Positions 11,955 through 63,708 of a stretch of DNA of 64,000 nt are shown one piece after another (the stretch's first letter is position 1; each line of letters begins with the position of its first letter). This DNA is from Octopus vulgaris (lineage: Eukaryota): positions 41,974,001 to 42,038,000 of the forward strand of contig OX597826.1 in assembly GCA_951406725.2 (NCBI GenBank), written 5' to 3'. The translations under genes and the position numbers were made by a program. The notes beneath the pieces were generated by a model that searched no databases, was not told where the DNA came from, and was given only the letters and a program-made list of their open reading frames with translations.

Positions 11955-12356
11955 GGCGAGCTGGCAGAAACGTTAGCACGCCGGGCAAAATGCTTAGCGG
12001 TATTTCGTCTGCCGTTACGTTCTGAGTTCAAATTCCGCCGAGGTCGACTTTGCCTTTCATCCTTTCGGGGTCGATAAATTAAGTACCAGTTACGCACTGG
12101 GGTCGATGTAATCGACTTAATACCTATGTCTGTCCTTGTTTGTCCCCTCTGTGTTTAGCCCCTTGTGGGTAATAAAGAAATAGGTATTTCGTCTGCTGTT
12201 ACGTTCTGAGTTCAAATTCCGCCGAGGTCGACTTTGCCTTTCATCCTTTCGGGGTCGATTAGATAAGTACCAGTTACGCACTGGGCTCGATATAATCGCC
12301 TTAATCCGTTTGTCTGTCAGTGTTTAGCCCCTTGTGGGTAGTAAAGAAATTGGTAT
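11955..12356 (+). mobile_element. SINE family A, full head plus 2 tandem body units
   Basis: A-box tggcagaaacgtt, B-box gagttcaaattcc, central gcctttcatcctttcggggtcgataaa..gtaccag (Meta-domain-like, from memory); body repeated from 12184. Confidence 0.9.
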
Positions 12357-52145: not shown

Positions 52146-52918
52146 GAGCTAGCAGAAACGTTAGCACGCCGGGCGAAATGCTTAGCGGTATTTCGTCTGC
52201 CGTTACGTTGTGAGTTCAAATTCTGCCGAGGTCGACTTTGCCTTTCATCCTTTCGGGGTCGATAAATTAAGTACCAGTTCCGCACTGGGGCCGATGTAAT
52301 CCACTTAATACCTATGTCTGTCCTTGTTTGTTCCCTCTGTGTTTAGCCCCTTGTGGGTAGTAAAGAAATAGGTATTTCGTCTTTCGTTACGTTGTGAGAT
52401 CAAATTCCCGACTTTGCCTTTCATCCTTTCGGGGTCGATAAATTAAGTACCAGTTACGCACTGGGGTCGATGTAATCGACTTAATACCTATGTCTGTCCT
52501 TGTTTGTCCGCTCTGTGTTTAGCCCCTTGTGGGTAATAAAGAAATAGGTATTTCGTCTTTCGTTACGTTGTGAGTTCAAATTCCGCTGAGGTCGACTTTG
52601 CCTTTCATCCTTTCGTGGTCGATAAATTAAGTACCAGTTACGAACTGGGGTCGATGTAATCGACTTAATACCTATGTCTGTCCTTGTTTGTTCCCTCTGT
52701 GTTTAGCCCCTTGTGGGTAGTAAAGAAATAGGTATTTCGTCTTTCGTTACGTTGTGAGTTCAAATTGCGCTGAGGTCGACTTTGCCTTTCATTCTTTCGG
52801 GGTCGATAAATTAAGTACCAGTTACGCACTGGGGGTCGATGTAATCGACTTAATACCTATGTCCGTCCTTGTTTGTCCCTTCTGTTTAGCCCCTTGTGGG
52901 TAATAAAGAAATAGGTAT
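52146..52918 (+). mobile_element. SINE family A tetramer (one head plus four ~180-bp body units)
   Basis: Units restart at ggtatttcgtc near 52187, 52371, 52547 and 52731. Confidence 0.92.
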
Positions 52919-53130
52919 TTTATCATATCGACCTTGATCTCCCAGGATTTGAATGCAGAATGTAGGAAACCGGAAAATAACAATAATTTCGAGAGCAGCT
53001 GCAACGAAATTGATAATAAAAGAACAAACAATAAGAGAAAAAAGTAAAACAAAAACTCCAAAAAGCAACATCTAAATAAAAAGTTTAAAAAACCCCTTAA
53101 TATCGTTCGTTATCTTACGATAGCTCCCTA

Positions 53131-58649: not shown

Positions 58650-59201
58650 GTTTGAAATTTTGGTACAATGCCAGGAACTTCGGGAGAGGGGGTAAGTCAA
58701 TTACATCGACTCCAGTGCTCAACTGGTATTTATTTTATCGACTCCAGTGGAATTTGAACTCCGAATGTAAGGACGGACGAAATACCTATTTCTTTACTAC
58801 CTACAAGGGGCTAAACACAGAGGAGACAAGCAAGGACAGACAAACGGATTAAGTCGATTACATCGACCCCAGTGCGTAACTGGTACTTATTTAATCTACC
58901 CCGGAAGGATGAAAGGAATAACGTCGACCTCGGCGGAATTTGAACTCACAACGTAGCGGCAGACGAAATACCTATTTCTTTATTACCCACAAGGGGCTAA
59001 ACATAGAGGAGACAAACATGGACAGACTTAGGTATTAAGTTGATTATATCGACCCCAGTGCTTAACTGGTACTTAATTTATTGACCCCGAAAGGATGAAA
59101 GGCAAAGTCGACCTCGGCGGAATTTGAACTCACAACGTAACGGCAGACGAAATACCGCTAAGCATTTCGCCCGGCGTGCTAACGTTTCTGCAAAATCGCC
59201 G
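58650..59201 (-). mobile_element. SINE family A multimer (2 units plus alternative-tail unit)
   Basis: Reverse complement; junctions gacgaaatacctatttct. Confidence 0.88.
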
Positions 59202-60083
59202 GATTGCCTTAAAATAATAATAATACTAGTACTATAAAAGTATAGAAAAATCGAATGACAAATTCGAAGTTCCATTTAACCACGGTATGCATTTACTTTC
59301 TTATAATTTTCTCTAACAGCTACACTCTATCATACTTAAATGTATTTTAGACCTAATTTATCCTGTACAGAATATATTATGTAATAACTATTTTTCAAGT
59401 AAGCGAACAACATTTGGGTTTATAAAATAAATTTTATTAAAAAGCAGTTTAAATTGTGGAACCTCAGAATTTTTTCGCAGAACCCTGGGATTCTTCGGGA
59501 CCGACTTTCGGGAAACCGCGACCTACAATGCACTCTAAACTTCATCAATATAGACTGAATGGGAGATCGATCTCACATTTGTTTTATACTATGAAACCGC
59601 CTCGTTCATACGAATCCTTTATAAATATCCAAAGGCATAAAATACTGGAGATGTTTAAAGATTTTTATGAGAGATTAAAGTAGTTCTGTGGCATTAAGAT
59701 ATGTTTACTTTTCTGGTGTTAATGTAGCAAAACCTAGATTTAATAGTTGATTCCAGTTGACTAGAATAACAAACGGCGTCAGTGAAAACTCAAGCTCAGA
59801 AGCGCTGACATTGATCAACCAGAATCTGGTGACAGTATGTCAAACAAATTGAAGTAATTAAGATATTTGTATCTTGTTGTTTTAATAACTGTGTTGATAT
59901 GATAGAGACAAGAATAAGATATGAAAGGAATTTAACTAACTGCAGTTTAGCGGAAATTTGTAAATAAACCTCTCAGAAAGAAATTTATATATTTGGATGG
60001 GACGGGCTGGGTTACCCAGTTCAGGTAACTGATGGAAATGTAATGAGAAACAAAGCACGAATGAATTCCTTATTAAAGTTACT

Positions 60084-60494
60084 TATTTCTTTATTGCCCA
60101 CAAGGGGCTAAACATAGAAGGGAACAAACAAGGACAAAGGGATTAAGTCGATTACATCGGCCCCCAGTGCGTAACTGGTGCTTAATTTATAGACCCCGAA
60201 AGGATGAAAGGCAAAGTCGACCTCAGCGGAATTTGAATTCAGAACGTAACGGCAGACGAAATACTTATTTCTTTACTACCCACAAGGGGCTAAACACAGA
60301 GAGGACAAATAAGGACAGGCAAACGGATTAAGTCGATTACATCAACTCCAGTGCGTAACTGGTACTTAATTTATCGACCCCGAAAGGATGAAAGGCAAAG
60401 TCGACCTCGGCGGAATTTGAACTCAGAACATAACGGCAGACGAAATACGGCTATGCATTTCGCCCGGCGTGCTAAAGTTTCTGCCAGCTCGCCT
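60084..60494 (-). mobile_element. SINE family A dimer
   Basis: Reverse complement, two body units. Confidence 0.9.
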
Positions 60495-61221
60495 CCTTAT
60501 TAAAGTTTCTTGGCAAACAGATGTACATGTTTTCCCTCTATTGTGCATCAGACGTTTTAACTCTTTCCGTTTCGTTTGTCGCTGAGTGAGTCCAAATCGT
60601 AGCCCTCCACCCCCATCATGATGATTTATAAATAAGTACCAGTTACACACTGGGGTCGATGAATTTTCGACTTAATCCGTTATATATGATGTGTTTCTTT
60701 CAGTTTTCTTTTACCAAATCTACTCACAAGGCTTTGGTCGGTCCGATGCTACAGTGGAAGACATTTGCTCAAGGCGCCACACAGTGGAACTGAACCCAGA
60801 ATCATGTGATTGGGAAGCAAGCTTCGTACCACACAGCCATGCGTGCGTACATTTGGTGAAGAAATCCTTACTAAGATTAATTATGATGTAACCAACTGAA
60901 TTACCGAGTATGTAAGTTATATTTCTGAGTATTTAAGTACACACGCACGCGCACACGCACGCACGCGCGCGCACACACACACACACACACAATTTCCTAT
61001 AAATAAAGGATCACTGTCTCATCCATCGGATCAAAAAGTATCTTCCGAAATTGATGCCAGAGAAACGGTGGAGATTCTACAGAAACAATGCACCTGTCTT
61101 CATAGACACAAATGAAATTAATTTATTAATTTGGGGGAAGCAATTTTTAAAGCTAATTTTACCTACCAAGCAGTCGTTGCTATTGTCTCTTACAACAAGA
61201 TATCTAGAAATACATAGATAC

Positions 61222-61322
<101 letters not shown>

Positions 61323-61545
61323 TCAATATAGGGTGGCAAAAAAAATTTTGTAGAATTCTTTTGCCACCAGCGGCCTAGTAGGAAAAAATTAAAATAGTCA
61401 AAGACCATTTTTAAGTTCAACATCAACAATAAAGGAACGGCCATAATAGGCCATTCACCCACTAGAAATAACAGCCAAAGCTTCAACCGCAAATAAAAGT
61501 TAATTCAGTAAACCAGGAGAAAATTTAAAAAACATTTACCCTGTA

Positions 61546-61652
61546 ATTTCTTATACGATATACCGTTTCATCTGCTGATTAATGGTAAACTAACCTGATT
61601 AAATTAAATCAAGCCAATCTTCCACAGGCCCTCAGATTCTTCAGTAAGAAAT
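61546..61652 (-). ncRNA. Type I hammerhead ribozyme, copy 1
   Basis: AUUUCUUA-CUGAAGA-AUCUG-[long hairpin]-CAGAU-GAAA-CGG-uaua-UCG-UA^UAAGAAAU; all core residues intact; predicted cut between 61554 and 61553. Confidence 0.88.
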
Positions 61653-62038
61653 AGCCCAAGACGGAACAGATATTTTCACGAGGCATTTCCGACGTTGCCA
61701 AGTTAATATCTGACCTAAAATTTTCAAATCGTCGCACTCGCGCCAAATTTATCGGCAGCAAATAAATATAAGCCGTCGATTCCATTACGGAATTAACCAG
61801 AAAATTCATAATTAATCAATATAGGGTGGCAAAAAAAAATTTTGTAGAATTCTTTTGCCACCAGCGGCCTAGTAGGAAAAAATTAAAATAGTCAAAGACC
61901 ATTTTTAAGTTCAACATCAACAATAAAGGAACGGCCATAATAGGCCATTCACCCACTAGAAATAACAGCCAAAGCTTCAACCGCAAATAAAAGTTAATTC
62001 AGTAAACCAGGAGAAAATTTAAAAACATTTACCCTGTA

Positions 62039-62145
62039 ATTTCTTATACGATATACCGTTTCATCTGCTGATTAATGGTAAACTAACCTGATTAAATTAA
62101 ATCAAGCCAATCTTCCACAGGCCCTCAGATTCTTCAGTAAGAAAT
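62039..62145 (-). ncRNA. Type I hammerhead ribozyme, copy 2
   Basis: Same motif as copy 1. Confidence 0.88.
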
Positions 62146-62534
62146 AGCCCAAGACGGAACAGATATTTTCACGAGGCATTTCCGACGTTGTCAAGTTAAT
62201 ATCTGACCTAAAATTTTCAAATCGTCGCACTCGCGCCAAATTTATCGGCAGCAAATAAATATAAGCCGTCGATTCATTACGGAATTAACCAGAAAATTCA
62301 TAATTAATCAATATAGGGTGGCAAAAAAAAAAAATTTTGTAGAATTCTTTTTGCCACCAGCGGCCTAGTAGGAAAAAATTAAAATAGTCAAAGACCATTT
62401 TTAAGTTCAACATCAACAATAAAGGAACGGCCATAATAGGCCATTCACCCACTAGAAATAACAGCCAAAGCTTCAACCGCAAATAAAAGTTAATTCAGTA
62501 AACCAGGAGAAAATTTAAAAAACATTTACCTGTA

Positions 62535-62641
62535 ATTTCTTATACGATATACCGTTTCATCTGCTGATTAATGGTAAACTAACCTGATTAAATTAAATCA
62601 AGCCAATCTTCCACAGGCCCTCAGATTCTTCAGTAAGAAAT
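62535..62641 (-). ncRNA. Type I hammerhead ribozyme, copy 3
   Basis: Same motif as copy 1. Confidence 0.88.
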
Positions 62642-62896
62642 AGCCCAAGACGGAACAGATATTTTCACGAGGCATTTCCGACGTTGCCTAGTTAATATCT
62701 GACCTAAAATTTTCAAATCGTCGCACTCGCGCCAAATTTATCGGCAAATAAATATAAGCCGTAATGGAATCGACGGCTTATATTTATTTGCTGCCGATAA
62801 ATTTGGCGCGAGTGCGACGATTTGAAAATTTTAGGTCAGATATTAACTTGGCAACGTCGGAAATGCCTCGTGAAAATATCTGTTCCGTCTTGGGCT

Positions 62897-63003
62897 ATTT
62901 CTTACTGAAGAATCTGAGGGCCTGTGGAAGATTGGCTTGATTTAATTTAATCAGGTTAGTTTACCATTAATCAGCAGATGAAACGGTATATCGTATAAGA
63001 AAT
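62897..63003 (+). ncRNA. Type I hammerhead ribozyme, copy 4
   Basis: atttctta ctgaaga atctg...cagat gaaa cggtatatcg ta taagaaat; predicted cut after 62995. Confidence 0.88.
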
Positions 63004-63392
63004 TACAGGGTAAATGTTTTTTAAATTTTCTCCTGGTTTACTGAATTAACTTTTATTTGCGGTTGAAGCTTTGGCTGTTATTTCTAGTGGGTGAATGGCC
63101 TATTATGGCCGTTCCTTTATTGTTGATGTTGAACTTAAAAATGGTCTTTGACTATTTTAATTTTTTCCTACTAGGCCGCTGGTGGCAAAAGAATTCTACA
63201 AAATTTTTTTTTTGCCACCCTATATTGATTAATTATGAATTTTCTGGTTAATTCCGTAATGGAATCGACGGCTTATATTTATTTGCTGCCGATAAATTTG
63301 GCGCGAGTGCGACGATTTGAAAATTTTAGGTCAGATATTATACTTGGCAACGTCGGAAATGCCTCGTGAAAATATCTGTTCCGTCTTGGGCT

Positions 63393-63493
63393 ATTTCTTA
63401 CTGAAGAATCTGAGGGCCTGTGGAAGATATTTAATTTAATCAGGTTAGTTTACCATTAATCAGCAGATGAAACGGTATATCGTATATATAAAT
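63393..63493 (+). ncRNA. Hammerhead copy 5, helix I and II damaged
   Basis: Core intact, but the 3' strand of helix I reads tatataaat and helix II has a deletion. Confidence 0.6.
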
Positions 63494-63615
63494 TACAGGG
63501 TAAATGTTTTTTAAATTTTCTCCTGGTTTACTGAATTAACTTTTATTTGCTATATTGAAGCTTTGGCTGTTATTTCTAGTGGGTGAATGGCCTATTATGG
63601 CCGTTCCTTTATTGA

Positions 63616-63708
<93 letters not shown>

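Follow-up and report, generated by a model that had tools for sequence, protein, structure and literature searches.

A predicted non-LTR retrozyme family of Octopus vulgaris with two-armed insertions and fixed, paired ends in (TA)n

Known systems and the window array

Non-LTR retrozymes are defined, in the parts of the sources available to us, by tandem non-coding units with a hammerhead (Cervera and de la Pena 2020, PMC7229834; Li, Clavereau and Pollet 2026, 10.64898/2026.07.22.740005). For the animal hammerhead, the available text of PMC4209133 gives a short stem III closed by a palindromic loop as the dimer-dependent form. In that of Li, Clavereau and Pollet, eight of nine frog retrozyme dimers showed no cleavage in vitro, and the link between animal retrozymes and Penelope-like elements (PLEs) is based on co-occurrence and sequence similarity (10.64898/2026.07.22.740005). 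PLE insertions, as far as the available sections of two accounts go, have a tail at one end, an inverted truncated copy, tandem arrangement, palindromic junctions and a bias for (TA)n, which were explained earlier by endonuclease resolution or self-priming (PMC8557442, PMC3846280); how PLEs make tandem and inverted insertions and a one-sided tail is called undefined in one of them (PMC8557442). The purified Poseidon PLE of the green anole cuts and extends both DNA strands in vitro, initiates internally at two sites bounding its tail and is predicted to be a dimer; its start sites did not differ from one strand to the other, and ribozyme cleavage was not required (Frangieh et al. 2024, PMC11167929).

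The window, the whole stretch of 64,000 nucleotides of O. vulgaris DNA that was analysed (assembly GCA_951406725.2, contig OX597826.1, positions 41,974,001 to 42,038,000, forward strand), holds a palindrome. It is one copy of a small repeat that encodes no protein, bears a predicted self-cleaving RNA motif and occurs in hundreds of copies. The repeat unit is 495 nt long and tandem, and it is numbered here from the first base after the predicted ribozyme cut. As shown in Table 1, two arms of this unit meet head to head, a layout that is the known PLE structure of an inverted copy plus a tail at one end.

Table 1. Features of the two-armed array (window positions; inner and outer ends are given as unit positions)
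Feature	Position	Strand	Remarks
(TA)n target microsatellite, left	61210..61317	.	starts with a few ATAC units
Arm A	61315..62762	-	2.9 units of the 495-nt monomer; sense strand leftward; outer end 241 (site A), inner end 273
Outer end A, fixed (putative reverse-transcription start)	61315..61340	-	17 nt 3' of a predicted 13-bp stem-loop
Hammerhead motif, type I	61546..61652	-	predicted cut after 61554
Hammerhead motif, type I	62039..62145	-	predicted cut after 62047
Hammerhead motif, type I	62535..62641	-	predicted cut after 62543
Head-to-head junction	62759..62776	.	CCGT common to both arms 62759-62762; loop 62763-62772; ACGG 62773-62776
Arm B	62759..63619	+	1.7 units; sense strand rightward; inner end 259, outer end 132 (site B)
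Hammerhead motif, type I	62897..63003	+	predicted cut after 62995; no Rfam match
Hammerhead motif, second in arm B, disrupted in the assembly	63393..63492	+	TA-like changes: 7-nt deletion in the stem II hairpin, 3' strand of stem I altered
Outer end B, fixed (putative reverse-transcription start)	63595..63619	+	directly 3' of a predicted stem-loop
(TA)n target microsatellite, right	63618..63708	.	adjoins end B

The inversion at CCGT, with its 4-bp microhomology and 10-nt spacer, is present in the assembly as the preliminary description had it, and the ribozyme-sense strands of both arms do face outward, with both 3' ends meeting (TA)n. The loop, AATGGAATCG, is native to the right arm (B). That description also held that the array used the monomer's own CCGT-N10-ACGG; this repeat is indeed native, at unit positions 259-276, but its use is incidental to the window copy, and other copies invert elsewhere. 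The monomer holds 27 inverted repeats (4 bp, loop of 3-12 nt) at 24 positions, among which the CCGT repeat is nothing special. Two arms of about 845 bp had been reported; the actual lengths are 1,448 bp (left) and 861 bp (right), and the palindrome is therefore confined to the inner ~1.7 kb. Its reported extent thus stands, but it is imperfect: the perfect stretch is only 19 bp per side, after which the left arm has a 3-nt deletion. The left end overlaps (TA)n by 2-3 nt, and the DNA beyond the two (TA)n flanks differs between left and right and is unique on both sides. Within the unit, site B lies 109 nt upstream of site A, and this 109-nt interval is called the tail below. Taken alone, the window junction is an ordinary instance of the set described in the next section and is ordinary for PLEs.

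Two further observations concern the window itself. The outer ~280 bp of the right arm (63340-63616) carry five small TA-like changes in the last unit, and the terminal 128-nt segment of that arm has three mismatches and two gap bases, the most mismatches among 34 such segments compared; the changes are probably a local consensus error, perhaps from reads of an empty or different allele. Tandem repeats of 184 bp at 11999-12336, 52187-52920, 58749-59156 and 60080-60448, which we take to be an octopus SINE, are unrelated to the ribozyme array.

The unit, its predicted hammerhead and the family

The hammerhead motif of the monomer is of type I, with an 8-bp stem I, CUGAnGA, a 5-bp stem II, GAAAC, a 3-bp stem III and GUA; stem II is extended by a hairpin of ~60 nt and the loop of stem III is self-complementary. 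Three intact motifs lie in arm A of the window and one in arm B. An Rfam search of the window gave nothing at gathering level, since stem II bears this hairpin, and the miRNA matches that Rfam placed at the palindrome were hairpin-driven and were rejected. No match came from a pattern search for a version of this hammerhead in which stem II is short. Across loci L031-L129 the motif matched 259 times, a few of the matches coming from other families. Hammerhead position 7 takes all four bases across subfamilies, one stem II pair changes from G-C to A-U, loop III from TATA to TGCA (still self-complementary) and the triplet from GUA to GUC. In 15 variants picked for diversity, 98.5% of cells are paired; the variants are related to each other, so this is modest evidence. 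Predicted stem-loops precede both site B and site A.

The arrays have a GC content of 0.32-0.36 and run to as many as nine whole units with no other sequence. An ORF with reverse transcriptase (RT) and GIY-YIG domains is absent from the repeat, and the element is neither an autonomous PLE nor what is left of a longer coding element; when two PLE proteins were compared with the 99 loci by tblastn, no match extended into an arm, and there was none in the window. In sequence, the family shows traits of non-LTR retrozymes, with at least two consecutive units each bearing a complete type I hammerhead, non-coding, low in GC and dispersed. Judged by its sequence, the 495-nt repeat is a non-LTR retrozyme family with a predicted hammerhead. 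The unit is also present in four runs presumed to be RNA, where one contig comes back on itself after 495 nt, although genomic tandems look alike and the contigs carry neither strand nor ends.

Like the animal non-LTR retrozymes in the accounts available to us, the octopus family is a non-coding, AT-rich tandem with one type I hammerhead per unit, dispersed as dimers to multimers, with a short stem III whose self-complementary loop suits a double hammerhead, and with a presumed dependence on PLEs. In contrast to those retrozymes, its unit has 495 nt where about 300 is typical (51-972 reported) and its stem II hairpin has ~60 nt. Two arms, fixed paired ends and (TA)n are absent from the retrozyme account in PMC7229834, in whose available text 'inverted', 'target site' and 'octopus' do not occur.

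A DNA search of the genome with the monomer gave 995 candidates, of which 39 were scored, and all 39 loci were taken. Two score-free samples were added, namely the first 40 of 49 end-A matches on contig 1 and 20 of 30 end-B matches on contigs 1-2, the latter leaving out seven loci already taken, two in the end-A sample and the last match. End A followed by (TA)n has 670 exact matches genome-wide, so the family has at least 670 ends; the youngest form of end B followed by (TA)n has 182, fewer because older subfamilies vary at B.

Inverted two-armed insertions in (TA)n with one end A (~241) and one end B (~132) were found at 81 of the 99 loci (33/39 best matches, 31/40 chosen by end A, 17/20 chosen by end B), which shows that the window layout is not chance. 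There was no A+A and no B+B insertion among the 99 loci, although an independent choice of site would have made roughly one pair in two a same-end pair. In every one of the 81 sampled copies that have two standard ends, one arm stops at one fixed point and the other arm at the other. For four of these 81 the assignment depends on a second arm that is very short, and L059 and L060 are duplicates of one event. Counting six loci with one non-standard end, 87 of 99 are two-armed; the 12 that are one-armed or unresolved include one assembly gap, one hybrid and one locus that is A+B by eye behind a long insert. The other copies therefore repeat what the preliminary description proposed to look for, outward-facing 3' ends with variable junction positions, and several monomers per side, as it supposed, are common. 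Either arm can be the longer one (A 408, B 4,031; A 3,098, B 72). (TA)n adjoins both ends and poly(A) is absent, units within a young locus are ~99% alike, and the layout is found also in ~90% identical subfamilies and in arrays of <400 bp. At a few loci a minor alternative outer end on (TA)n replaces a standard one: L048 and L107 (~68-71), L064 (471) and L061 (~20).

Compared with endonuclease-positive PLEs, as the available sections of PMC3846280 and PMC8557442 present them, the retrozyme shares partial tandems, an adjacent inverted 5'-truncated copy, a one-ended tail, some palindromic junctions, a (TA)n bias with no visible TSD and a hammerhead upstream of the ends, and PLEs too have non-autonomous head-to-tail derivatives (MRC1 in Chlamys). 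It differs in having no ORF, a tail of 109 nt as against 30-40 and several units on both arms; the PLE tail is optional or often at one end in those sections, whereas the retrozyme has one per two-armed insertion (81/81). As with Poseidon, there are two putative internal start sites that bound the tail, downstream of the hammerhead and beside a stem-loop, and the target is AT-rich. Unlike Poseidon in vitro, the octopus genomic copies show strict use of one site per end and 5' stops at the predicted cut, and they overlap the target by 2-3 nt (AT/TAT) where no homology at priming is reported for Poseidon. Our literature search, which older subscription papers lay outside, found no account of a strict one-site-per-end rule. 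Noteworthy here are this rule and its occurrence in a retrozyme, with a 109-nt tail and the PLE signature.

Junctions, templates and the PLEs of the same genome

Junction positions vary across the whole unit and show 2-6 nt of microhomology or inserts. Scoring of 42 young junctions gave 22 without insert and 20 with an 'insert', some of the latter being script artefacts, including the window junction, which was mis-scored because of the 3-nt deletion close by. The microhomology noted in the window is enriched in the family as a whole, as 18 of the 22 insert-free junctions overlap by 2-6 nt against 18% for random joins. Many other junctions have templated, repetitive inserts. Such inserts are expected of polymerase theta-type joining. 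The junctions of L053, L113, L116 and L127 hold inserts of 20-200 nt made of a repeated AT-rich 10-mer from unit positions ~20-35, a pattern resembling several rounds of snap-back synthesis at cDNA ends close to the ribozyme cut.

Unit positions 1-33, just past the predicted cut, hold 40 of the 152 inner ends, as against six in 463-495, just before it. This sharp step suggests ribozyme-cut linear RNA as the template, and the short arms point to the same. Smaller peaks at 100-132 (15 ends) and 199-231 (16 ends) match the stem-loops before B and A, and ends near 200-265 are about equally common in A and B arms. The two inner ends differ in phase by no more than 20 nt at 22 of 76 loci against 8.9 on permutation, and at nine of 46 against 4.1 when both arms are long; the window junction belongs to this set. 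The excess would follow if the two arms had one RNA 5' end in common, or if two enzymes read a nicked circle, and fold-back would give it too. The other 54 of 76 junctions are out of phase by >20 nt.

At two subfamily sites the alleles agree between the arms in 25 of 25 young loci, where shuffling gives 12.1 (maximum 21). This concordance indicates that the two arms derive from one source, probably a single RNA, and could be explained too by one source locus being active at a time. Nearest-neighbour concordance is weak, as the closest sequence was the locus's own other arm in 11 cases, tied with it in 37 and another in 19 (n=67). At 38 loci, each with at least three units' worth of sequence, nine have variants that are fixed in all units and absent from the rest of the 38, seven of them on both arms, and several have variants in some units only, in an assembly with homopolymer noise; at the in-phase locus L067 a variant is confined to the innermost unit of each arm. 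In L063:2500-4165 (G000:C7 near 124.36 Mb), an A arm stopped at position 1 meets, in head-to-head orientation, an arm from a second hammerhead family, and each of the two arms ends at its own distal site in (TA)n. This hybrid is evidence for separate priming of the two ends, although it is a single case and possibly two fused insertions.

The genome also carries intact PLE ORFs of the RT-GIY-YIG type, in families of 781 aa and 784 aa that are 68% identical. Both proteins carry a CX2-5CxxC motif, assigned to Neptune and Nematis PLEs in the available part of PMC8557442. Both families lie in (TA)n with two ends 38 nt apart, and upstream, by eye, there is a hammerhead-like motif of the U3-A8 type, a type described in the available text of PMC4209133. 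In the 784-aa family nine of 20 loci are two-armed, every one with one of each end, and 11 are one-armed; with two head-to-head pairs of full ORFs (L216/L217 and L224/L225), the total is 11 of 11 pairings with one of each end. Two of 19 loci of the 781-aa family are inverted, and the only inverted copy with both ends read (L165) has the same pairing. Most autonomous copies are one-armed, which counts against a two-ended reading. The 784-aa family (L200-L249) is very young, with a unit of 4,433 bp at L209 and a coding-like region upstream; the 781-aa family (L160-L175; L163:1244-6490) is young and mostly one-armed, with a 4,713-bp unit and an upstream reading frame of at least 479 aa that has no Pfam match.

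No significant DNA similarity was found between the monomer and either the terminal repeats of these two families or 30 GIY-YIG loci, and the tail has 38 nt in the two intact families against 109 nt in the retrozyme. The absence of similarity lowers the case for derivation from a known partner, and not that for working like PLE insertion. A short CCT-containing motif 10-17 nt before the distal end, noticed post hoc, is common to the retrozyme and the PLEs. A GIY-YIG remnant beside a B end (L128/L176) was tried as the partner and rejected as an old unrelated copy, and a partner search through two other hammerhead families reached no ORF. The protein database search with the PLE protein returned only unnamed or mis-binned relatives; several close ones, filed under bacterial symbionts of bivalves, are probably host sequences that ended up in metagenome bins. 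Other non-coding hammerhead families, at least four in number, lie in (TA)n (L076:1450-2425/L180-L199; L196:858-1300/L250-L274; L063:3726-4165; L172:1900-2600); among them the L196 family resembles the 495-nt unit at ~60% between the cut and end A. In inverted pairs of three such families the ends are about 85-100 nt apart on informal inspection.

Proposed two-ended priming and its rivals

We consider it probable that the arrays arise by two-ended target-primed reverse transcription, carried out by a borrowed PLE enzyme from two fixed RNA sites and followed by end joining. Two-ended priming from two fixed sites is the simplest account of the combined evidence, and priming of both ends of a (TA)n break, already supposed in the preliminary description, is most likely, as the inversions recur at 81 of 99 loci. 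The same facts can be approached by a single priming event, after which the cDNA folds back and copies itself and the far end is resolved at the other tail boundary. Self-priming was proposed for head-to-head PLE palindromes in the available part of PMC3846280, and the Drosophila Penelope endonuclease needs tail DNA to cleave, as cited in PMC11167929, where, on the other hand, both tail boundaries act as start sites of reverse transcription in vitro. The enrichment of in-phase junctions, the mirrored variant of L067 and the allele concordance of the arms are what fold-back would give as well, and the window has a 4-bp stem closed by a loop that is native to one of the arms. However, this loop belongs to the shorter arm B, from which the 1,448-bp arm cannot simply have been copied, and the DNA hairpin at the junction is weak (-1.5 kcal/mol predicted). 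Most junctions are out of phase, those in phase at L066 and L067 have a loop of 0-2 nt, and the hybrid L063, though one case, requires two templates. Self-priming is therefore judged unlikely. A DNA-level rearrangement of the tandem array after a one-armed insertion, by replication fold-back or unequal exchange, could change the number of units, and unequal crossover is the accepted model of satellite growth in the available text of 10.64898/2026.07.22.740005. Such a rearrangement explains neither why each inverted arm stops on (TA)n at the other of the two fixed sites nor why inner ends pile up past the ribozyme cut, and it sits poorly with the near identity of units within young loci, and we give it almost no weight.

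Twin priming, the process named in the preliminary description, was reportedly described for L1 by Ostertag and Kazazian in 2001. Its L1 form has a variable internal second site and yields adjacent, non-overlapping pieces of one mRNA, according to the available text of 10.1101/2024.12.14.628481. The octopus arrays resemble it in that both target ends appear to be primed, the 3' ends face outward and the cDNAs are joined at microhomology, and all this would suit a LINE protein acting on multimeric RNA. L1 insertions of this kind have a poly(A) primary end and are a minority, whereas the retrozyme has two fixed internal sites and overlapping sequence in the majority of its insertions; a poly(A) primary end, a variable second site and non-overlapping pieces are not what the octopus repeat shows. 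Its outer ends are fixed across loci (241, 132), internal to the unit and far from the ribozyme cut, no poly(A) is present, and the PLE families of the same genome show the same pattern. In the window, 18 nt separate the inner end of arm B (259) and the outer end of arm A (241), which L1 twin priming predicts; this was rejected as an L1 mark because A and B arms both stop there. The term thus fails in its L1 sense, both start sites being fixed, one per end, with arms that repeat the same sequence, and the L1-type process, largely refuted by the fixed second site, is extremely improbable here. An assembly or read artefact, in the form of fold-back chimeric long reads, was also weighed. Among the matches listed in four public DNA runs (assembled contigs, donor individual not given), no contig bridges the window junction, and the TA-like local errors in the right arm indicate an imperfect consensus. 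A chimeric read would mirror its flank, but here unique DNA of different sequence lies on the two sides and each arm stops at a fixed site of its own; the layout is repeated on many contigs, in diverged subfamilies and in very short arrays. Ends A and B followed by (TA)n are seen in contigs of one DNA run and three presumed RNA runs, and antisense-to-sense joints at other positions in contigs of two DNA runs. Unequal arms, distinct flanks and 81 parallel loci together make a fold-back chimera very unlikely.

Returning to two-ended priming by a borrowed PLE enzyme, we propose a plausible model that starts from the unit, its hammerhead motif, the (TA)n on both sides and the ends A and B, one per end. 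The array would be transcribed and the RNA cut by the ribozyme, as the stops of short arms just past the predicted cut suggest. A PLE protein, probably a dimer on one RNA, would then cleave both strands of (TA)n, as PLE biochemistry would allow, and reverse transcription may begin internally at the two ends of the tail, from site A on one DNA end and from site B on the other. Each reverse transcription would continue for a variable number of units, on a multimer, on a circle or by jumping, and the two cDNA 3' ends would be joined by microhomology-mediated end joining, at CCGT in the window, where the join may have begun with the B-arm cDNA snapping back on itself over a short stretch. In vitro, the anole PLE used its start sites alike on the two strands, a finding that does not account for the strict pairing and counts against the model. 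We lean slightly towards a broader reading, in which PLEs themselves integrate by programmed two-ended reverse transcription, with one RNP, probably a dimer on a single RNA, start sites assigned one per end of a double-strand cut and the tail reflecting the distance between the active sites on that RNA; the retrozyme and at least three other hammerhead families would have captured both sites, lengthened the spacer to ~100 nt, and be copied from cut monomers and from circles or multimers.

Hundreds of young insertions provide insertion-level evidence both for a link between retrozymes and PLEs and on how PLE-type insertions and their one-sided tail form, in that the retrozyme bears the PLE signature, with the tail ends strictly one per DNA end in the retrozyme (81/81) and in the autonomous family (11/11). 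What was a descriptive oddity thereby becomes a mechanism that can be tested, since the RNA substrate is small and defined and the genome itself encodes intact candidate enzymes.
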